The position numbers and the translations under genes are program-made. The notes beneath the pieces are model-generated. The model worked only from the letters and a program-made list of their open reading frames with translations. It was not told where the DNA came from and ran no database searches. From contig MFTF01000018.1 in NCBI GenBank assembly GCA_001786745.1, forward strand, positions 23,577 through 87,576: a stretch of 64,000 nucleotides of DNA. Reading direction: 5' to 3'. The DNA is from Candidatus Nomurabacteria bacterium RIFCSPHIGHO2_01_FULL_36_23 (GTDB taxonomy: Bacteria; Patescibacteriota; Minisyncoccia; Phycocordibacterales; UBA9973). Positions 7,340 to 62,242 of the stretch are shown in pieces; the stretch's first letter is position 1, and each line of letters starts with the position of its first letter.

Positions 7340-9073
7340 ATGGAAAAATATGGAGAATTATTGCGGAGTTTGCTCGCCAAAAGAGGAATTACTGATCCGG
7401 CGCAAGCTGAGATTTTTTTAAACCCGAATTATGAGCGTGATTTGCATGACCCCTTTTTAATGAAAGATATGGAGCGAGCTTGCGTTCGGCTTTTTGAGGC
7501 AATTGAAAATGAAGAAAAGATTATTATTTACGCGGACTATGATTGCGATGGAATTCCCGGAGCAGTTATAATTCAGGACTTATTTTCTGCCATAGGCGGA
7601 TCCGCCTTGGACGGAAAAAAAATAAATTATGAAGTCTATATGCCCCAAAGAAATTCGGAAGGATATGGGCTGAACCTTGATGCCGTTAAAAGTTTTGCCG
7701 AATCGGGAGTAAAACTTTTAATAACCATTGATCTTGGCATTACGGCTGTAGCTGAAGTAGCGCAAGCAGAGGCGGATGGTATTGATGTGATAATCACAGA
7801 TCATCACTTGCCTCGCCGAAGCGAAAGCGAAGGCGGGTTTGCCCCCCATGATCTTCCGCGCGCTTATGCAATCTTAAATCCAAAAGTAGATAACTATCCG
7901 GAGAAAATGCTATGCGGAGCCGGAGTGGTTTTTAAATTAGTACAGGGATTTGTCAAGAAATACAGTGAGTATTTTAATATAAAAAATGGTTCTGAAAAAT
8001 GGATGCTAGACATGGCGGGGCTTGCCACGTTTTCTGACATGGTTCCACTTTTAGGTGAAAATCGCGTCATTGCCTATTTTGGGATGAAGGTTTTAAGAAA
8101 ATCTCCTCGTCCGGGATTGCAAAAACTTCTGGCAAAAATGAACATTGATCAGAAATATTTAACCGAAGATGATATCGGTTTTATGATAGTCCCGCGATTG
8201 AATGCCGCTTCTCGAATGGATGATCCGATGCGCGCCTTTGAACTTCTTTCTACGCAGTCCGAGACAGAAGCCGGCGCACTCACAGAGCATTTATCAAAAA
8301 TAAATGATGAAAGGAAAAACGCTGTTATGGGAATTATGCGCGAAGTACACAAGACATTTGAAAAATTTGAAACGCGCGAAACAAGAGAAGTGATAGTCGT
8401 AGGCAATCCAAGATGGCGAGTGGGTGTTTTGGGTTTAGTGGCAGGAAAAATTTTAGACGAATACAAAAAACCTGTTTTTGTTTGGGGTAAAGATGAAAAT
8501 GATTGTATTAAAGGATCTTGTCGAAGTAATGGGTCGGTATCTGTGGTTGAACTTATGACAGAAACTAATGAATCTTTTATAGATTTTGGTGGTCATGAGC
8601 TGGCGGGCGGGTTTACAGTGCATCATGATAAAATTCACTTTTTAGAAGAAGCTCTATCGATGACTTTCGTTGAAATACAAAAAGGACAGTCCTTAAAGAA
8701 TTCCCCAGGGATTGTCCTTGGGAAGGAAGCCGACATTGCGGGCGATTTAAGTTTGGTAAACATGAAAAATTGGCGTGAAATAGAAAAACTTGCTCCTCTG
8801 GGTTTAGGAAATCCAAAACCTGTTTTTTTATTTAAAAATGTAAAAATAGAAAAAATTAAAAAGTTCGGCAAAAACGGCTCGGGAGAACATCTAGAAATTA
8901 TTTTTTCTGATGCAAACAATAAAAAAGTCAAGGCAATTTCTTTTTTTTCCAACCACAATTCTTTTAAAATACCTTTAATGGAGAAAAAAATAGTTAATCT
9001 TTTAGCCACTTTTGATTTGTCTCGTTTTCAAGGCAAAGAAGAGTTAAGATTAAGAATAGTTGATATCAAATGA
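7340..9073 (+). CDS. recJ: Single-stranded-DNA-specific exonuclease RecJ (DHH family)
   Basis: Motifs DYDCDGI, ITDHHLP and DHHA1-type GGH..AGG are present. It contains an in-frame palindromic element at 8680-8722. Confidence 0.85.
   Translation: MEKYGELLRSLLAKRGITDPAQAEIFLNPNYERDLHDPFLMKDMERACVRLFEAIENEEKIIIYADYDCDGIPGAVIIQDLFSAIGGSALDGKKINYEVYMPQRNSEGYGLNLDAVKSFAESGVKLLITIDLGITAVAEVAQAEADGIDVIITDHHLPRRSESEGGFAPHDLPRAYAILNPKVDNYPEKMLCGAGVVFKLVQGFVKKYSEYFNIKNGSEKWMLDMAGLATFSDMVPLLGENRVIAYFGMKVLRKSPRPGLQKLLAKMNIDQKYLTEDDIGFMIVPRLNAASRMDDPMRAFELLSTQSETEAGALTEHLSKINDERKNAVMGIMREVHKTFEKFETRETREVIVVGNPRWRVGVLGLVAGKILDEYKKPVFVWGKDENDCIKGSCRSNGSVSVVELMTETNESFIDFGGHELAGGFTVHHDKIHFLEEALSMTFVEIQKGQSLKNSPGIVLGKEADIAGDLSLVNMKNWREIEKLAPLGLGNPKPVFLFKNVKIEKIKKFGKNGSGEHLEIIFSDANNKKVKAISFFSNHNSFKIPLMEKKIVNLLATFDLSRFQGKEELRLRIVDIK
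8680..8722. repeat. Palindromic repeat element family 1, in-frame copy inside recJ (encodes KGQSLKNSPGIVLG)
   Basis: Sequence aaaaggacagtccttaaagaattccccagggattgtccttggg matches 2662-2706 apart from a 2-nt indel and a few substitutions. Confidence 0.75.
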
Positions 9074-30446: not shown

Positions 30447-30456
30447 ATTAAACCCC

Positions 30457-30488
30457 CCCCAACGAGGGGTTGGGGAGGAGTGTTTTTT
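30457..30488 (+). terminator. GC-rich hairpin (ccccaac-gaggg-gttgggg) followed by a T-run; putative intrinsic terminator after the peptidase gene
   Basis: 7-bp G/C stem at 30457-30475 and TTTTTT at 30483-30488. The 7-nt gap to the U-tract is longer than ideal. Confidence 0.5.
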
Positions 30489-42378: not shown

Positions 42379-42744
42379 ATGTCTCCAAAAATAAAAAACA
42401 TCATAATATTTGTAGGAATTGCAGCAGTTTTTATTTTGATTTATATTTTTTTTATAAAAAAGCCCCAACCCCAGGCTGATTTAGTTTCTTCTTCCAACCC
42501 CACATTTTCTTCTTTTTCCAGTATACCCGATACAATGATTTCAAACCAGAGACCCCTGATTGCCAAAGATTTTCTTTCTTTGCTTTTGAATGTTAAAAAT
42601 ATAAAATTAGACGATGCTATTTTCTCTGACAGCGCATTTAATAATTTGCGCGATTCTAGTATCATACTTATACCTGATGGAAATGAGGGGCGGCCCAATC
42701 CATTTGCTCCGCTTGGAACCGATAATGTTGAGGCACCCATATGA
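42379..42744 (+). CDS. Small bitopic membrane protein associated with the pilus cluster (PilP-position)
   Basis: One N-terminal TM helix. No assignable domain. Confidence 0.4.
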   Translation: MSPKIKNIIIFVGIAAVFILIYIFFIKKPQPQADLVSSSNPTFSSFSSIPDTMISNQRPLIAKDFLSLLLNVKNIKLDDAIFSDSAFNNLRDSSIILIPDGNEGRPNPFAPLGTDNVEAPI

Positions 42745-44489
42745 GTTTTTTAGAAGAATTAAGTAAAAAAGGCGTAATCAATGAGAGCCAAATAGGTGAA
42801 ATTAAAAATCGCGCAAAAGAGAAGTATAATGGAAATATTGACGAAGCCCTTATTGAATCTGGCGTTTCAGAAGAAAAAATTCTTGAAGTAAAAGGGGAGT
42901 ATTTGCGAATACCAGTGAAGAAAATAAATGTTCAAGATGTGTCTTTTGACGTTCTTCAATATATTTCAGAAGATTCGGCGACACATTATCATTTTGTTCC
43001 AATTGATCTTAAGGAAGGAGTATTGGAAGTGGGCATTACAGATCCAGAGAATACACAGGCGATGGATGCCTTACAGTTTATTTCAGCCAAGCTCGGTATT
43101 CCTTTTAAAATTTTTCTCATTTCGGAAAGTGACTATAAAAATATAATAGAAACCTATAAAGGCATATCGAGCCAGGTAGAAGAAGCGCTTAAAGAATTAA
43201 ACCAAGATGAAGCAATTGATGCAAAAAGTTTAAGCAAGGAAAATTTAGATAAAGAGATAAAAGATATAAAACCGGGAGAGGAAGCCAAAATAATAGAAGA
43301 TGCGCCAGTTATAAAAATTGTTGCTGTAATGCTGAGTAATGCCATAGAGGGGAATTCTTCTGATATCCATATTGAGCACGGAGGAGACAAGATAAAAGTA
43401 CGTTATCGCGTAGATGGCTCCCTTTACACTAGCATAGTATTACCCCTCAATGTTTATAGTGGAATAATTGCGCGTATAAAAATTCTTGCCAAATTGCGAT
43501 TAGACGAGAAAAGAAAACCCCAAGACGGGTCTTTTAGCGCAACTATTAATGGACGCAAGGTTGATTTTCGTGTTTCTACAATGCCGGCATATTATGGCGA
43601 GAAAATTGTTATGCGTATTTTAGATTCTGAAAAGGGAGTTAAGCCTCTGGATCAATTAGGTCTATCAGAAACAAATCTCAAAATGACCAGAGAGGCGCTT
43701 GCCCAGCCGTATGGAATTATTCTTATCACTGGTCCGACAGGGTCTGGAAAATCCACCACTCTATATTCAATGATGAATGAACTTGATCAGGAAAAAAACA
43801 ATATTGTATCCTTGGAAGATCCAGTAGAATATCATATGCCCAATATTAATCAATCTCAAGTAATGCCCGAAATCGGATATACTTTTGCGACGGGGCTACG
43901 TTCTATTTTTCGTCAAGATCCGGACATAATAATGGTTGGAGAAATTCGTGATAAAGAAACAGCCCAACTTGCTATTCAAGCGGCTTTGACTGGACACCTC
44001 GTTCTTTCAACTCTCCATACAAATAGCGCTATTGGCGCAATTCCTCGTCTTATTGATATGGGTATTGATCCGTATCTTATCGCGCCAACCCTAATTCTCT
44101 CTATAGCTCAACGTTTGGCTAAAACGATTTTTCCCGCTTCTAGAAAGCTTATATCAATGGATCCAAGTACTAAAATTCAAATTGAAGAGCAATTTAAAGA
44201 TTTGCCGGATGAATATAGAAAAAAAATTATTTTCAAAGATAAAATGTATGAAGTTGTTCCATCTCCCGAATGTCCTTCTGGCACAAAGGGTCGTATTGCT
44301 ATTTTTGAAATGTTTAAAGTAGATAAGGAAATGGAGGCTACAATACTAAAAAATCCCACCAATGCGGAAATTTACAAAATAGCCCGCAGAAAGGGAATGC
44401 TGATGATGAAAGAAGATGCCATATTGAAATCTCTACAAGGCATTATTCCTTTTAGGGAAGTATATAATTTTAGCAATGAAAATGAGTAA
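42741..44489 (+). CDS. pilB: Type IV pilus assembly ATPase PilB (full length with N-terminal GSPII_E_N domain)
   Basis: Walker A ITGPTGSGKSTTLYS, GspE motif VRYRVDGSLYT, and the N-terminal domain. Confidence 0.85.
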   Translation: MSFLEELSKKGVINESQIGEIKNRAKEKYNGNIDEALIESGVSEEKILEVKGEYLRIPVKKINVQDVSFDVLQYISEDSATHYHFVPIDLKEGVLEVGITDPENTQAMDALQFISAKLGIPFKIFLISESDYKNIIETYKGISSQVEEALKELNQDEAIDAKSLSKENLDKEIKDIKPGEEAKIIEDAPVIKIVAVMLSNAIEGNSSDIHIEHGGDKIKVRYRVDGSLYTSIVLPLNVYSGIIARIKILAKLRLDEKRKPQDGSFSATINGRKVDFRVSTMPAYYGEKIVMRILDSEKGVKPLDQLGLSETNLKMTREALAQPYGIILITGPTGSGKSTTLYSMMNELDQEKNNIVSLEDPVEYHMPNINQSQVMPEIGYTFATGLRSIFRQDPDIIMVGEIRDKETAQLAIQAALTGHLVLSTLHTNSAIGAIPRLIDMGIDPYLIAPTLILSIAQRLAKTIFPASRKLISMDPSTKIQIEEQFKDLPDEYRKKIIFKDKMYEVVPSPECPSGTKGRIAIFEMFKVDKEMEATILKNPTNAEIYKIARRKGMLMMKEDAILKSLQGIIPFREVYNFSNENE

Positions 44490-44559
44490 AACCCCTCCCG
44501 ACCTCCCCTTATCAGAGGAGGTGGAAAAAGTCCCCCTGACAAGGGGGATTAGAGGGTTG
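44490..44559. repeat. GC-rich palindromic repeat element family 2, intergenic copy (CCCCTCCCGACCTCCCC...CCCCCTGACAAGGGGGATT)
   Basis: About 75% identical to the segment at 53221-53299 inside ligA. It forms a long imperfect hairpin. Confidence 0.8.
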
Positions 44560-44586
44560 TATTAAAACTGGCTTGTAGTACAATTA

Positions 44587-45033
44587 GTGTGTATGGAAGG
44601 AGAAAAAACAAAAATTTTAATAATTGATGACGATAATTTTCTTTTAGATATGTATGCGCTTAAATTTAGCCAAAATAATTTTGAGGTGTACACGGCCTTA
44701 AGTGGCATACAGGCAATAAAAAAACTTCAAGGCGGACTTAACCCTAATATTATTTTAATGGATGTAATTATGCCTGAAATGGATGGCTTTGAAATGTTAG
44801 AAAAAATGAACACTAATCAATTATCTCCAAATTCTATAAAAATAATTTTATCCAACAAAAGTCAACAGGAGGATATTGATCGAGGCAACGCATTGGGAGT
44901 AGCAGGTTACATTGTAAAGGCAAATTCCACTCCAATGGAAGTGATAAACCAGGTGACAAGCATTTTAACTAAGAAAGTTAACCCCGACGCAAAGTCAGGA
45001 TCCCGACCTGAAAGCGTCGGGATTAAAAAATAA
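44587..45033 (+). CDS. Stand-alone response-regulator receiver domain (CheY/PilH-like)
   Basis: Motifs ILIIDDD...LMDVIMPEMDGFE...K are present. It sits inside the pilus gene cluster. Confidence 0.7.
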   Translation: MCMEGEKTKILIIDDDNFLLDMYALKFSQNNFEVYTALSGIQAIKKLQGGLNPNIILMDVIMPEMDGFEMLEKMNTNQLSPNSIKIILSNKSQQEDIDRGNALGVAGYIVKANSTPMEVINQVTSILTKKVNPDAKSGSRPESVGIKK

Positions 45034-47719: not shown

Positions 47720-48205
47720 ATGAAAAAAATAAGTTTCAAAAAAGGTTTCACCTCGGCTTGCCGAAGGCGAGACGGATTTACATTAATTGAACTCTTGGTC
47801 GTGGTTGCCATCATCGGTATTTTAGCTTCCGTTGTGCTCGCTAGCCTAAACAGCGCTAGAACGAAAGGTGCTGACGCGGCCGTTAAATCTAGTATGGCTA
47901 ACTCTCGTGCTCAGGCAGAGCTATTCTATGATACTGGACAGACTTACGCTGGTGTTTGTGCTGTTGGCGCGACTACTATTAATGCAATCTTAGCTGGTGC
48001 TGTCAAGCAAAGTGCTGATGCAGACCAAGTTGTTGGTGATGATGCAGCTGCTACGGCAACCGTAGCTGTCTGTAATGACAGTGCTGCCGCTTGGGCATCC
48101 GAAATGCCACTCAAGGGTGGAAGTTTCTTCTGTGTGGATAGTAGTGGAAAAAGTCAGGTTAATACCGCTGTTGGCCTGGCGGCTGCTGCAGACTACGCTT
48201 GTTAA
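47720..48205 (+). CDS. Type IV major pilin (PilA-like), paralog 1
   Basis: Motif GFTLIELLVVVAIIGILASVVLASLNSAR and a Cys-containing C-terminal D-region. Confidence 0.8.
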   Translation: MKKISFKKGFTSACRRRDGFTLIELLVVVAIIGILASVVLASLNSARTKGADAAVKSSMANSRAQAELFYDTGQTYAGVCAVGATTINAILAGAVKQSADADQVVGDDAAATATVAVCNDSAAAWASEMPLKGGSFFCVDSSGKSQVNTAVGLAAAADYAC

Positions 48206-48338
48206 TAACTATTAACATATTTAATTGTTGCAATAAAAAACAAAAACTACCCTTTTGATTTATCCACAGGGTGTTTTTTGTTTTTATGAATGTGCTATAA
48301 TATAAAAGTTCATTATAAATTTTAACTTTTTTATAAAT

Positions 48339-48851
48339 ATGTTAAAAAATTCTAAAGGTTTGGTCTTGGGGGATTCGAAAGGTTTTACATTAATTGAGCT
48401 CTTGGTCGTGGTTGCTATCATCGGTATTTTGGCGTCGGTTGTACTGGCTAGTTTAAACAGCGCCAGAAACAAAGCTGTTGATGTCGCTATAAAGTCCGCA
48501 ATGGCTAACTCTCGCGCGCAAGCAGAGCTATATTACTTTCCAGATGAAACATATAATAATCTCTGCACCGCTGTCGGTGGTGTTGGCCCTATGGTTTTAA
48601 ATGCTGCGCAGAAATTAAATATAGCCGCAGTTGTGGGTGATAATACTCAGCCATTTATTTATGATGATACAGGTACTCTTGCTGGTGCTTCCGTTTGTCA
48701 CGACAGTGATACTGCTTGGGCAGCTGTTACATCCTTAAAGAATCCTACGCTTCCCCCTGGCGGTCCTTTTGCCGGCGGATGGTGTGTTGATTCTACTGGG
48801 GCCTCTAAGGAAGCAACTGCTCTTCTTTCTGGCGAATATGTTTGTCCGTAA
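48339..48851 (+). CDS. Type IV major pilin, paralog 2
   Basis: Motif KGFTLIELLVVVAIIGILASVVLASLNSAR and a variable C-terminus with Cys residues. Confidence 0.8.
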   Translation: MLKNSKGLVLGDSKGFTLIELLVVVAIIGILASVVLASLNSARNKAVDVAIKSAMANSRAQAELYYFPDETYNNLCTAVGGVGPMVLNAAQKLNIAAVVGDNTQPFIYDDTGTLAGASVCHDSDTAWAAVTSLKNPTLPPGGPFAGGWCVDSTGASKEATALLSGEYVCP

Positions 48852-48889
48852 TAAAAATTAATTTTTATTAATTTTAATATTGTAAAAAA

Positions 48890-49438
48890 ATGAATTTCAC
48901 GGAAAATTTTAAGAAAGGTTCCGCCTCGGCTTGCCGAAGGCGAGACGGGTTTACATTAATTGAACTCTTGGTCGTAGTTGCCATCATTGGCATTTTAGCT
49001 TCAGTGGTTTTGGCTTCGCTTAATTCAGCCCGAGGCAAGGGCGCTGATGCTACTATAAAATCAAACCTAGTCAATATGCGTCCGCAAGCGGAGATTCTTT
49101 ATGATTCATGGGGAAATTATGCTGTGGACGCCACGCCTACATACTTTGCTCTTGGTCAATGTACAAATGTTGGTACTGGAGCGGATACCCTTTTCTCTAA
49201 TCCTACCATCTGGAGTCAGATAACATCTGCTTATAATGCTGGTGCCGGAATTGCATCTACTAGGTGTTATTCATCATCTGGAGCTTATGCAGTTGCAGTA
49301 CAGCTTAAAACTAGTGATGGGAACACAGCTCCATTACCAGATTCTTGGTGTGTAGATAGCACAGGAGCAAGTAAGGCATATACCTGGGCTGCAGCTGAGA
49401 CAATCGCTACTTCCATCAACGCTACTTTTTGCCGATAG
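48890..49438 (+). CDS. Type IV major pilin, paralog 3
   Basis: Motif DGFTLIELLVVVAIIGILASVVLASLNSAR. Its leader is shared with paralog 1. Confidence 0.8.
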   Translation: MNFTENFKKGSASACRRRDGFTLIELLVVVAIIGILASVVLASLNSARGKGADATIKSNLVNMRPQAEILYDSWGNYAVDATPTYFALGQCTNVGTGADTLFSNPTIWSQITSAYNAGAGIASTRCYSSSGAYAVAVQLKTSDGNTAPLPDSWCVDSTGASKAYTWAAAETIATSINATFCR

Positions 49439-52269: not shown

Positions 52270-52731
52270 ATGATAAAAGAAATCAAAAAACTTAATATTT
52301 TTAAAAAAGGGCCTGCCCCGCACGCCCCGACGATACGTCGGGGTCGTTCGGGGTTTGTGATACTCTTTGCGGTTACGCTTTCAAGTATTCTTTTAGCAAT
52401 AGCGTTAGGAGTTGCCAATATAGCGCTTAAAGAAGTGAAATTTGGCACTTCAGCCCGAGATACTAATAACGCTTTTTTTGCAGCTGACACCGGTATAGAA
52501 CTTACGCTTTTTAATGATAAATCTCCTGGCAGTATTTATACACCAGCCCCGGGATTTTGGAGTTTTGTTTTATCTGGCTTGAACTCTAGTGGGCAAGGCT
52601 GTGCCAAGGTGACTGTGGATAAAACTGTTCCACCAGCGACCAAAATTATTTCAAAAGGATACAACGATGGAGGCGCTTCTTGTACTCAGGGATCAAATAG
52701 CGTAGAACGACAGCTAGAAGTAAATTACTGA
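52270..52731 (+). CDS. PilX-like minor pilin
   Basis: PilX_N-like N-terminus RRGRSGFVILFAVTLSSILLAIALG. Confidence 0.5.
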   Translation: MIKEIKKLNIFKKGPAPHAPTIRRGRSGFVILFAVTLSSILLAIALGVANIALKEVKFGTSARDTNNAFFAADTGIELTLFNDKSPGSIYTPAPGFWSFVLSGLNSSGQGCAKVTVDKTVPPATKIISKGYNDGGASCTQGSNSVERQLEVNY

Positions 52732-52735
52732 TTGA

Positions 52736-54880
<2,145 letters not shown>

Positions 54881-59288: not shown

Positions 59289-59454
59289 AAGCGAAACCCC
59301 GCCTTTCAGCGGGGAATCTCGGAGGGCTAACGCCCATTTACCTCATGAGTATATACCCAATGGAAACAAAAGTCAAGCAAGTAAATATGGAGTCATTTAA
59401 CATCAATTTTGGCCTTTTTATCGGCGAGACTTAAGACTTAATCAATTTTAGTAT

Positions 59455-60337: not shown

Positions 60338-62242
60338 ATGAAGGTCTCTTTTAATTGGCTTAAGTGGTATATACCTGACGTACCTGAGGCAAATAAGCTC
60401 GCAGATATTTTCACCCATCATGTTGTAGAAGTGGAGAGTGTGGAGAAGAGCGCAGATGACGATAATATTTTCGATATAAATGTTTTACCAAACAGGGCGC
60501 ATGATTTACTTTCTCACCTCGGTATAGCAAAAGAAATTTCTTCGCTTTTAGATATTAAATTTATTGACCCGACGCCCAAATATAAAATTCCAGAATCTCA
60601 ACCGACTAAATTAAAAATAGAAATAGAAAGTGATAAATGTCGTCGATATATGGGAAGAATTGTGCGAAATATAAAAGTTGGTCCTAGTCCAGAATGGGTA
60701 GTCAAACACCTAGAATCAATCGGACAGAGAAGCGTAAATAACATTGTAGATGCAGCAAATATTGTGATGTTTGATTGCGGTCAGCCATGTCATGCGTTTG
60801 ATTTGGATAAAATTAAAGATGACATAATTATTCGTAGTGCAAAGGATGGCGAAGAGATAACTACGCTAGATAATAAGCAGATAAAACTAAAATCTCCCAA
60901 TGTTGTAATTGCTGATAAAAAGAATATCTTAGCTATTGCCGGGATAAAAGGAGGGAAAATTGCGGAAGTAGATAATAATACAAAAAATATCATTATTGAA
61001 GTGGCAAATTTTGATCCGACGAGCATAAGAAAGACTGGTAAAGACATAGGAATTTTTACAGATGCATTAAAAAGATTTGAAAATGATTTATCTCCAAAGC
61101 TTTGTGATTTTGCTATGTTGGAAACTTCTGGTCTTTTAGCTGAATATGGCTTTAATGATTTTGAAGATATTATAGATATTTATCCCCAAAAACAAGCAGA
61201 GCGCCAACTCTCTTTTTCAGCTGAAAGAATATCTAAAATTTTAGGTTTAAATGTTTCTATAAAAGAAATTGAAGATATTTTAAAAAGATATAATTTTGAG
61301 TATAAAAAAAATAATGGTAAATTTAAAATTATTGTGCCATTTATGCGCCTTGATTTAATTATAGAAGAAGATATAGCAGAAGAGGTGGGTAGAATTTTGG
61401 GTTATGATAAAGTAAAACCAAAAATTCCAAAAATCAATTTTAAACCCAAAACTGATGAAACACATGCGAAAATTTCTTGGGTGAGAAATAAATTACTAAC
61501 GGATGGATACTCTGAAGTTATGACTTATGTATTTTGCGAAAAAGGGGAAATGGAAGTAGAAAAGAGTGCAAGCGATAAAAAGTTTTTGAGAACAAATTTG
61601 ACGGATGGGTTGAAAGAAAGCTTGAAATTAACTCAAATAAATGCGTCACTACTTGGCTTAGATGAAGTAAAAATCTTTGAAATTGGAACAGTTTTTCAGA
61701 AAAATGGAGAAGAAATTCATGTTGCGTATAATGAAAAACCTGCCCGCAATGCTTCGCCCGCCAGCAACGCTTCGCGTAGCGATTCGGGCTGGCATAGCGA
61801 TGCAGGCGGGGAAAAAATAAAAGAAATGAGTTTGGAGGATTTTTGTAAATCAGCTGAGCCTGATGCTTTTGTTCAAGATCTCCTACTTCGCAACGGAGAC
61901 CATTCACAAAAGCATTCAGATTCAGCTTTAATTTCTCAAAAGTTTAAAATGTGGTCTCTATTTCCTTTCATTGCGCGCGATATAGCGGTGTGGGTGCCAC
62001 AGGAATTAAAAAGCAGTAAAGTCAAAGAGAACATACAGCAAATTATAAATAAAAATGCAGGGGAATTGCTAATCAGGGGTCCGGAACTTTTTGATGAATT
62101 CAAAAAAGGAGATAAAATTTCATATGCTTTTAGATTAGTTTTTCAGTCTTATAATAGGACTCTTACAGACACAGAAGTAAATGAAATTATGACTAAAATA
62201 ACCAATAAAATCAAGGAGAATAATGATTGGCAAGTGAGGTAA
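60338..62242 (+). CDS. pheT: Phenylalanyl-tRNA synthetase beta subunit (short form)
   Basis: N-terminus MKVSFNWLKWYI, B3/4 and B5 (FDINVLPNRAHDL) domains, and a C-terminal FDX-ACB-like region. It carries a GC-rich in-frame insertion at 61739-61810. Confidence 0.8.
   Translation: MKVSFNWLKWYIPDVPEANKLADIFTHHVVEVESVEKSADDDNIFDINVLPNRAHDLLSHLGIAKEISSLLDIKFIDPTPKYKIPESQPTKLKIEIESDKCRRYMGRIVRNIKVGPSPEWVVKHLESIGQRSVNNIVDAANIVMFDCGQPCHAFDLDKIKDDIIIRSAKDGEEITTLDNKQIKLKSPNVVIADKKNILAIAGIKGGKIAEVDNNTKNIIIEVANFDPTSIRKTGKDIGIFTDALKRFENDLSPKLCDFAMLETSGLLAEYGFNDFEDIIDIYPQKQAERQLSFSAERISKILGLNVSIKEIEDILKRYNFEYKKNNGKFKIIVPFMRLDLIIEEDIAEEVGRILGYDKVKPKIPKINFKPKTDETHAKISWVRNKLLTDGYSEVMTYVFCEKGEMEVEKSASDKKFLRTNLTDGLKESLKLTQINASLLGLDEVKIFEIGTVFQKNGEEIHVAYNEKPARNASPASNASRSDSGWHSDAGGEKIKEMSLEDFCKSAEPDAFVQDLLLRNGDHSQKHSDSALISQKFKMWSLFPFIARDIAVWVPQELKSSKVKENIQQIINKNAGELLIRGPELFDEFKKGDKISYAFRLVFQSYNRTLTDTEVNEIMTKITNKIKENNDWQVR

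Follow-up and report, generated by a model that had tools for sequence, protein, structure and literature searches.

A GC-rich palindromic repeat beside a pilB-like gene of a Candidatus Nomurabacteria bacterium, probably a slightly decayed copy of a widespread BoxC/PIT-kind family

Triplex-type repeats of the BoxC/PIT kind have been known for about 30 years. Intramolecular triplexes are built from a mirror repeat beside a hairpin: the tail can fold back antiparallel on the purine arm, with G.G-C and A.A-T or T.A-T triplets. The purine motif, on the G-rich DNA strand, allows A and T equally; the pyrimidine motif, on the C-rich strand, needs one of them only. GC-rich hairpins scattered in a very AT-rich genome are also known as the GC clusters of yeast mtDNA and the double-hairpin elements of Allomyces mtDNA, which are located in spacers and sometimes in coding sequence and show signs of mobility with no encoded enzyme. 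These elements are organellar and their sequences are unrelated to the element described here; we know of no report of a mirror-repeat or triplex design for them.

The BoxC repeats of Escherichia coli were re-described as potential intrastrand triplex (PIT) elements (Hoyne et al. 2000, in the form in which it is cited by PMC4666352) and then as TMECO (PMC4666352). The TMECO consensus is 5'-CCCTCNCCC N3-6 GGGNGAGGG N3 GGGNGAGGG-3', a class II purine motif (Holder et al. 2015, PMC4666352). Triplex formation was found with single-stranded oligonucleotides only, and none was detected in vivo (PMC4666352). In E. coli these repeats are always intergenic, have no link to a transposase and are not located on mobile elements; local deletions and rearrangements that distinguish strains are associated with them, and five of the 23 copies occur in inverted pairs, each composed of a TTA-linker and a CCG-linker unit (PMC4666352). 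Earlier work, to the extent that it is cited in PMC4666352, found neither promoter nor terminator activity for PIT/BoxC. Purine-motif triplexes do not form in RNA (PMC4666352, introduction).

The window analysed in this study is a stretch of 64,000 nucleotides of contig MFTF01000018.1 of Candidatus Nomurabacteria bacterium RIFCSPHIGHO2_01_FULL_36_23. The element under study, AACCCC...GGGTTG, occupies exactly positions 44490–44559 and is a 70-nt palindrome. Its G+C content is 0.571, compared with 0.355 across the whole window (57% against 35.5%), in accordance with a preliminary description of this DNA, in which it had been called very GC-rich. The element starts directly 3' of the TAA of pilB (44487–44489), also as described there, although the 72-nt string quoted for it took in the last two A's of that stop codon. 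The naming of the upstream gene as pilB was appropriate, since ORF 42741–44489 encodes a T2SSE/PilB-type ATPase (Pfam E = 7e-118). It is followed, all on the + strand, by genes for a response-regulator receiver protein, a PilT-like ATPase and a PilC-like protein. The element accounts for 70 nt of the spacer between pilB and the regulator gene, which measures approximately 100 nt: 97 nt if the listed ORF is taken to start at its GTG, and 105 nt if the ATG at 44595 is taken as the start. The pilB-side copy was unchanged in seven assemblies of this organism, from different samples. The features of this spacer are:

44490–44559, no strand: intergenic palindromic dimer of two inverted triplex-type units with tails outward, between the pilB-like stop and the response-regulator gene
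44576–44584, + strand: -10-like motif TAGTACAAT, outside the element, read from the sequences; putative promoter

The -10-like motif 5' of the response-regulator gene is kept in four genomes as TAGTATAAT or TGATATAAT (TAGTAYAAT). Its presence just downstream in all four places the element between the pilB stop and the probable promoter of the regulator. The element itself was considered as a promoter and rejected, since a sigma-70 consensus scan of 44300–44750 gave no match and the conserved TAGTAYAAT falls outside the element. When the whole window was compared with Rfam, one tRNA was the sole family at gathering score, and over the element only chance-level matches (E ≥ 0.08) were obtained. 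The regulator gene carries a precise 42-nt indel between strains.

The 16-mer CCCTCCCGACCTCCCC has two exact occurrences in the window, at 44493 and 53226; shuffled sequences gave an expectation of 0.07, and none of them reached two. The second occurrence belongs to a copy located in frame inside the NAD-dependent DNA ligase ORF 52739–54880 (ligA). The pilB and ligA copies are identical at 61 of 79 aligned columns, with the 16-mer exact in both, and the similarity extends over loops and linkers, beyond the G/C runs, which bears out the common framework that had been noticed in both sequences. Further copies of the 16-mer were found in many genomes; the resemblance is neither confined to this pair nor limited to low-complexity sequence. 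The membership of 44490–44559 in a repeat family is confirmed.

Long hairpins are predicted for both copies and on either strand, as expected from the palindromic, hairpin-forming character previously attributed to the element. Predicted RNA folding gave -35 to -49 kcal/mol (z -3.3 to -5.3), values that account for Watson–Crick and G-U pairs only, triplex pairing being outside the models of the tools. The sense-strand RNA of the pilB copy is predicted to form a stem-loop of -35.3 kcal/mol (z = -4.0). The ligA copy, the structure of which is more intact, reaches -48 kcal/mol as RNA; the pilB copy is made less stable by two G-to-A changes, one per unit.

Each copy is composed of two inverted units of approximately 30 nt and a variable spacer. 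In each unit, a hairpin (pyrimidine arm, loop, purine arm) is joined by a 3-nt linker to a G-rich tail, the mirror image of the purine arm. The parts of both copies, and of a further short unit of the window, are:

44492–44521, - strand (G-rich strand): left unit of the pilB copy; reported by the scanner as 44491–44521, stem 8, linker 3, one Watson–Crick mismatch
44492–44498, read on the + strand: tail of the left unit, CCCCTCC
44499–44501, read on the + strand: linker, CGA
44502–44508, read on the + strand: pyrimidine arm, CCTCCCC
44509–44514, read on the + strand: loop, TTATCA
44515–44521, read on the + strand: purine arm, GAGGAGG
44522–44530, no strand: spacer TGGAAAAAG between the units, variable in length and sequence across the family
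44531–44556, + strand: right unit of the pilB copy, G-rich on this strand
44531–44536, + strand: pyrimidine arm of the right unit, TCCCCC
44537–44542, + strand: loop, TGACAA
44543–44548, + strand: purine arm, GGGGGA
44549–44550, + strand: linker, TT(A)
44551–44556, + strand: mirror tail, AGAGGG
44557–44559, + strand: terminal TTG
53223–53300 (78 nt), + strand: in-frame copy of this dimer within the ligA coding sequence, approximately codons 162–187
53225–53256, - strand: left unit of the ligA copy, CCTCCCC-loop-GGGGAGG-TCG-GGAGGGA
53268–53297, + strand: right unit of the ligA copy, (T)TCCCC-TTGATAA-GGGGGGA-TTC-AGGGGGG, its tail a perfect mirror of the purine arm
30453–30477, + strand: lone short unit CCCCCCCC-AACGA-GGGG-TT-GGGGAG, 7 nt downstream of an M16 peptidase stop codon, with a T6 run after it

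On its G-rich strand the left unit consists of the pyrimidine arm and loop, followed by the purine arm GGGGAGG, the linker TCG and the tail GGAGGGG, with the consensus 5'-CCTCCCCTTGATAAGGGGAGGTCGGGAGGGG-3'. On the + strand it reads CCCCTCC-CGA-CCTCCCC-loop-G(G/A)GGAGG, where blocks 1 and 3 are mirror images and block 4 complements block 3. The right unit is 5'-TCCCCCTGATAAGGGGGATTAGGGGG-3' on the G strand. In the pilB copy, the purine arm of the left unit, GAGGAGG, differs by one G-to-A change from the family consensus GGGGAGG, and the tail of the right unit, AGAGGG, by another from AGGGGG. With a mismatch in each unit, the pilB copy may not fold as a triplex at all. The triplex-pattern scanner detected five units in the window (the four of the two copies and 30453–30477), compared with none in 30 first-order Markov windows, and all four units of the two copies fit the plan with stems of 6–8, a loop 1 of 4–8 nt, a loop 2 of 2–3 nt and at most one mismatch.

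A scan of one genome per species located the 16-mer at no fewer than 120 loci. Among the matches listed, nearly all the 16-mers of low- and medium-GC genomes were completed by GGGGAGGAG a few bases further on. The isolates among the matches listed belong to Geomonas, Azospirillum, Luteimonas, Paramagnetospirillum, Emticicia, Aequorivita, Dyella, Undibacterium, Rhodanobacter and Xylanibacter, and the MAGs among them to Bacteroidota, Proteobacteria, Omnitrophota and Patescibacteria; the unit and its hairpin partner are present in isolates and MAGs of these phyla and of others. In addition, 53 viral contigs matched, some of which bear the unit just 5' of a ribosome-binding site and start codon. 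Among the genome matches listed and the viral loci, 105 16-mer units were completed by the hairpin arm, and 101 of them also had the mirror tail with one mismatch at most.

The full-dimer pattern was detected at 73 metagenome loci of 31–63% GC, with the consensus (W)AACCCCTCCCGACCTCCCC-TTRNCA-GGGGAGGAG-spacer-TCCCCC-TGNNAA-GGGGGATTNAGGGGGTT(R). The 43 distinct dimers have conserved ends, (W)AACCCC and GGGGTT(R), beyond which only a mutually pairing AA and TT is conserved. Dimers are present in the window, in the fetched loci L127 and L185 and at the 73 metagenome loci, and single units in L128, in L183 and at 30453 of the window. In many AT-rich copies the spacer is T-rich and then A-rich, so that each unit gives a hairpin and a U-run. 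The dimer is also found in frame in tRNA-guanine transglycosylase (TGT) and UvrA genes of other AT-rich contigs, in other reading frames. A profile-type search with a concatenated peptide of 57 aa, obtained by translation of the element, gave no scoring candidates.

A chance similarity of C/G-rich low-complexity sequence, or an assembly artefact, has negligible probability. The sequence is of low complexity, and by our own arithmetic the 16-mer would be expected a few hundred times in 596 Gb, but only 0.07 copies are expected in the window. This reading is refuted by the completion of the units among the matches listed with a matching hairpin arm (105) and a mirror tail (101), by the presence of the element in genomes of isolates, and by the seven independent assemblies of this organism.

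The relation between tail and stem was analysed on perfect pyrimidine/purine hairpins that do not contain the 16-mer, in 1.5 Mb of fetched loci. A perfect mirror tail was present in 60 of the 94 distinct hairpins with a G-rich 3' flank, compared with 21 ± 3.3 (maximum 33) for permuted tails in 1000 permutations, and the linker was almost always of 3 nt (TTG, TTA, CCG, CTG or TCG). In a second set, from 2.05 Mb of fetched loci and restricted to units in which each G of the mirrored arm has its match in the tail, the tail base opposite a stem A was T in 109 cases, A in 108, C in 13 and G in 8 (132 units, 54 stem types). Neither set is phylogenetically independent, as the loci were ascertained via the 16-mer. 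The equal use of A and T points to a structure at the DNA level and not to an RNA signal. The mirror covariation of tail and stem, an argument drawn from sequence comparison, points to a selected purine-motif triplex of DNA, and the units are predicted to form it.

Runs such as GGGGAGGTCGGGAGGGG on the G-rich strand could also suggest a G-quadruplex or i-motif as the regulatory element, instead of a triplex. Most units, however, hold just two or three G-runs of at least three, and a quadruplex would leave without explanation the complementary pyrimidine arm, the register-specific mirror relation and the positions occupied by A or T only. Such a structure is regarded as very improbable.

The synteny from pilB to ligA is kept in related Nomurabacteria/Paceibacterota contigs. 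L127 and L125 have spacers of 7 and 27 nt, respectively, between pilB and the regulator gene, and neither spacer contains the element; in L128 the spacer is of 90 nt and contains a different GC-rich sequence. The pilB-side copy is read as inserted, now fixed and slightly decayed, a polarity of gain versus loss derived from three relatives only, which are 76–81% identical over the last 200 PilB residues. Its invariance in seven assemblies could reflect either purifying selection or recent common ancestry. A TAAAAC repeat around the pilB copy was considered as a target-site duplication and discarded, since no such duplication was found in the flanks of 43 copies. The search for a mobilising enzyme was negative in the 64-kb window and near the other copies in the fetched loci. 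As neither an enzyme nor a target-site duplication was found, the word mobile describes here only the patterns of presence and absence.

The hairpin had been suggested to be possibly terminator-like at this site. The stem-loop is present, but the sense strand has no U-tract, the hairpin being followed by GTATTAAAAC, and the consensus terminator scan gave terminator-like sites on the minus strand only; on that strand, the spacer 44522–44530 gives a T5 run after the hairpin of the right unit. The canonical terminator reading of the pilB-side element is not supported. A wider RNA-level function was also considered, in which the element would be a signal of the pilus operon (an intrinsic terminator or attenuator, a 3' stabiliser or an RNase III site at the end of the pilB mRNA) that uncouples pilB from the regulator, pilT and pilC. 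It would agree with the start of the element right at the 3' side of the pilB stop codon, with the stability of the sense RNA stem-loop (-35.3 kcal/mol, z = -4.0), with the hairpin and U-run given by the T-rich-then-A-rich spacers of many AT-rich copies, and with the invariance of the pilB copy in seven assemblies. It would also agree with the position of other dimers, since about 12 of 30 intergenic dimers of low-GC loci are within 6 nt of a stop codon, and the gene ends that flank dimers are 28 3' ends and 19 5' ends; closeness to stop codons is, however, expected anyway in such short spacers. Besides the missing U-tract and the restriction of terminator-like sites to the minus strand, several data argue against this function: PIT/BoxC elements acted neither as promoters nor as terminators in E. 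coli, as far as the work is cited in PMC4666352; L127 and L125 manage with a 7–27-nt spacer free of the element; the same sequence is found inside ORFs, where termination would be harmful; and the A/T equivalence of the tail fits DNA, not RNA. An RNA-level signal is therefore considered improbable, and the -35 kcal/mol 3' stem-loop may have an incidental effect on the pilB mRNA.

A REPIN-like origin, in which REP-analogue units would form a non-autonomous transposon, its single-stranded DNA form being moved by a Y1/HUH transposase (of the RAYT or IS200/IS605-like type) that another part of the genome or other elements would provide, is possible but unlikely. The occurrence of singlets and head-to-head dimers in both orientations, with no target-site duplication, would fit this origin, as would the conserved unpaired tail beside the hairpin, similar to that of tagged REPs (PMC3733652). 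REPs have also been reported inside genes, many of which serve replication and repair (PMC3733652), and the hosts here include LigA, UvrA and RecJ. Moreover, a sister Nomurabacteria genome (L126) encodes a Y1_Tnp protein flanked by palindromes, but these palindromes are of a different family, and tblastn with this protein gave no match in the 64-kb window or the other fetched loci. The ends of the element are devoid of the GTAG or CGTC tag, and transposases have never been found near TMECO (Holder et al., PMC4666352); CGTC REPs also lack a dedicated enzyme (PMC3733652). With no Y1 gene in the window or next to other copies, this route has no direct support. An association of the family with a RAYT found no support in the 64 kb of this genome and the other fetched loci, the Y1 gene of L126 being the single one found and its flanking palindromes belonging to another family. 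A heptamer (ATCAAGG/CCTTGAT) common to the loop region of the element and the L126 palindrome was judged to be due to chance, because loops vary freely across the family.

The element had been proposed to act as coding sequence in ligA, and it does form part of the reading frame, as a 22-residue in-frame insertion with respect to E. coli LigA (2OWO). The insertion is located in the adenylation domain, between IPLKLH and LEVRGE (loop IPLxL|LEVRGE). A protein of Candidatus Nomurabacteria bacterium RIFCSPHIGHO2_02_FULL_37, from Rifle groundwater, matches this LigA with 100% identity, which places the window in a CPR/Patescibacteria genome. In the AlphaFold2 model (mean pLDDT 67.5), residues 167–185 are modelled as coil with pLDDT below 50, and the strands that flank the insert are modelled with averages of 93 and 90 over blocks of 10 residues.

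The same loop was compared in 119 homologues of 68–90% identity. It was empty in 51 and filled in 68 (57%), with at least nine kinds of insert. Of ten inserts checked as DNA, eight were triplex-type units and two were plain palindromes:

Window, L127 and L185: the dimer of the window
L128: left unit alone
L183: unit in the opposite orientation
L125, L184 and L268: other sub-families, including BoxC-like ones
L266 and L267: plain palindromes

The last two, two of the ten checked as DNA, rule out that every LigA insert is of triplex type. In L184 the Ile-Pro-Leu codons themselves are the pyrimidine arm of the unit. On a neighbour-joining tree the insert states required 35 steps, against a mean of 38.8 after shuffling, and are nearly as scattered; this tree is unfit for counting gains and losses, because sequences of approximately 70% identity make it too star-like. 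Judging by these inserts, the loop appears to have been hit or remodelled many times.

Taken together, the pilB-side element is probably a fixed, slightly decayed copy of a cosmopolitan repeat of the BoxC/PIT kind, which would act and spread at the DNA level and have no dedicated function at this site. In this explanation, the element would have entered a very short intergenic space, flanked by the pilB-like stop and the promoter region of the response regulator, and a surface loop of LigA would have received the sister copy in frame. The family would be kept and spread via folded single-stranded DNA (hairpin plus third strand), either recognised in this form by a trans-acting enzyme or promoting repair or template-switch copying. 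The host would tolerate it at harmless sites, namely spacers and, as insertions of 3n nucleotides free of stop codons, permissive loops of proteins. A dedicated function at the pilB site would probably be absent, and any effect on the pilB mRNA would be that of an incidental strong 3' stem-loop. The family is probably selfish DNA; we infer both its DNA-level propagation and its lack of function. Propagation as folded single-stranded DNA is favoured, with the REPIN-like route by a trans-acting Y1 enzyme as a live alternative.

A broader idea is put forward only tentatively, and is rather doubtful: the CCCCTCC-CGA-CCTCCCC...GGGGAGG family could be mobile DNA recognised by structure, which crosses phyla, possibly via phages, and is read as a folded single-stranded triplex hairpin and not as a transposase site; in CPR bacteria, together with related units, it would insert again and again in permissive loops of essential proteins of replication and repair. 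If so, the IPLxL/LEVRGE loop of LigA would be a natural hotspot from which the targeting rule could be learned, a possible one being microhomology with the pyrimidine-rich Ile-Pro-Leu codons, which serve as pyrimidine arm in L184.

The literature search on CPR/Patescibacteria with RPE, MITE, REPIN or triplex repeats gave nothing relevant, and the search by sequence strings of the element gave only unrelated eukaryotic primers and sequences. The BoxC/PIT kind itself is already known. No report was found in the literature search of its presence in a CPR host, of the tails-outward dimer, of the cross-phylum near-identity of this family including phage contigs, of its in-frame insertions in LigA, UvrA and TGT, LigA being a marked hotspot, or of the A/T-equivalence argument for a DNA purine-motif structure. 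The BoxC/PIT design, with nearly the same sequence, reaches ultra-small CPR bacteria and phage contigs, and the in-frame tolerance in essential genes, the LigA hotspot and the A/T covariation offer testable handles on the propagation of such repeats. For annotation, the element explains why CPR proteins vary in length and contain odd segments rich in Pro, Gly and Ser, and it advises caution before such hairpins are called terminators.

Compared with described systems, the element differs from a MITE in that the whole of it is an inverted repeat, with no target-site duplication in 43 copies, and from a Rho-independent terminator in that its stem-loop has no U-tract on the transcribed strand. 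With the Rickettsia palindromic elements (RPEs), as presented in PMC10969869, it shares the palindromic nature, a reduced AT-rich host genome and the repeated in-frame insertion in unrelated housekeeping genes, where the added peptide segment is tolerated (here in LigA, TGT and UvrA). However, RPEs are of approximately 150 bp, form ten Rickettsia-specific families and, in that paper, are not described as triplex-type; the element of 70–80 nt, with units of approximately 30 nt common to several phyla, is set apart from them by size and description.

Similarities to REP/REPIN sequences and CGTC REPs (Di Nocera et al. 2013, PMC3733652) include short GC-rich palindromic units with an unpaired tag, singlets and head-to-head dimers, a location mostly at gene ends with some intragenic copies, notably in replication and repair genes, and, for CGTC REPs, the lack of a dedicated transposase. 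On the other hand, the tail of the element mirrors the stem and is not a fixed tetranucleotide, the GTAG/CGTC tag is absent in 43 dimers, and no RAYT association was found for the family in the window or the other fetched loci.

The closest system is BoxC/PIT/TMECO. Differences from TMECO concern the arms, which are CCTCCCC/GGGGAGG and TCCCCC/GGGGGA, of 6–8 nt instead of 9, and depart from the TMECO consensus; the orientation of the dimer, with tails outward, in contrast to the inward tails read directly in the hrpB-mrcB pair of E. coli; the AT-rich CPR host; and the location, since in-frame intragenic copies (ligA, TGT, UvrA) and copies on phage contigs depart from a strictly intergenic one. 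The architecture is otherwise alike, with a C-rich arm, a loop, a G-rich arm, a 3-nt linker and a mirrored second G-rich arm. The left unit has a TCG linker on its G strand and the right unit TTA or TTC, compared with TTA and CCG/TCG in TMECO, and in both systems units occur as singles or as inverted pairs that mix two linker types. Both are multi-copy, highly conserved and widespread in bacteria, have no nearby transposase, and vary in presence or absence between relatives. The inserts in the LigA loop of L184 and L268 are nearly TMECO in sequence.

In LigA, the loop that separates IPLxL from LEVRGE (window positions 53160-53330) is an insertion hotspot, filled in 68 of 119 Paceibacterota homologues (P0001-P0120) and empty in 51. 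At least nine different palindromic kinds of insert were found in these 119 proteins, in both orientations. The loci tied to this observation are the window, the related Nomurabacteria/Paceibacterota contigs L125-L128, and the fetched loci L183-L185 and L266-L268. The LigA loop of L184 holds a BoxC-like unit whose pyrimidine arm is made of the Ile-Pro-Leu codons themselves. Compared with LigA of E. coli, the LigA of the window has two further insertions besides the loop insert, both of which match low-confidence AlphaFold segments (residues 258-266 and 514-535):

53510-53530: LigA insertion, tiny palindrome GAACCTCTactgAGAGGTTC, peptide EPLLRGS
about 54290-54335: LigA insertion, 12-residue segment

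A 42-nt GC-rich palindrome, AACCCCGACGC...GCGTCGGG, of a family other than the element studied, was located at 44984-45025, within the gene that follows the pilB-like gene:

44587-45033, + strand: response-regulator ORF, with the 42-nt palindrome at its 3' end, in frame, near the regulator C-terminus

Exactly those 42 nt are missing from the regulator gene in L262 (3570-3760), a strain whose PilB protein is identical; within the population the palindrome is polymorphic, present or absent as a precise unit that preserves the codons.

A motif conserved 10-25 nt upstream of start codons, TAGTAYAAT (or TGATATAAT), probably represents the -10 promoter element in CPR bacteria, and in L217 and L253 the dimer of the element is placed directly upstream of it:

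44576-44584: TAGTAYAAT-type motif; also upstream of the regulator gene in L125, L127 and L128, and in L217 and L253

Variants of the element were detected in phage and metagenome contigs. A group of related phage contigs (L134, L143, L154, L161, L175, L176 and L177) carries a left unit with a long variable loop insert, directly ahead of a start codon and its AGGAG ribosome-binding site; the gene downstream starts with MPIIEGG in L134 and L143. In the metagenome contigs L189, L198 and L244 (36-37% GC) the inverted repeat runs 8-10 nt past the usual ends (for example, ATATCCCTAA...TTAGGGATAT), which suggests either that this type of element is longer or that a palindrome already stood at the site when the element was inserted.

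The window also contains a lone unit:

30453-30477: short triplex-type unit, CCCCCCCC-AACGA-GGGG-TT-GGGGAG

An M16 peptidase gene has its stop 7 nt before this unit, which is followed by a T6 run and then by an AI-2E transporter gene; the lone unit, in contrast to the pilB copy, could genuinely be a terminator.

Other families of GC-rich palindrome are represented at 7805-7866, 61736-61813, 52302-52360 and 59295-59337. One is within RecJ, a long one of the GCTTCGC/GCGAAGC type is within PheT, another lies close to the N-terminus of ORF 52270-52731, and one directly follows the stop codon that ends a MazF/PemK-like gene. Several have CGTC/GACG and may be CGTC-type REPs.

Downstream of pilC, a repeat of about 221 nt occurs three times in tandem (47731-49124); its copies are 67-71% identical and overlap three adjacent ORFs (161-182 aa), which are probably tandem paralogous pilin-like genes.

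The sister Nomurabacteria contig L126 (1880-2700) encodes in its pilus locus a 223-aa Y1_Tnp protein (IS200-like, RAYT-like). Its gene is flanked, in a REPtron-like arrangement, by copies of the palindrome ATCAAGGATTATCCTTGAT, whose family is not that of the element studied.
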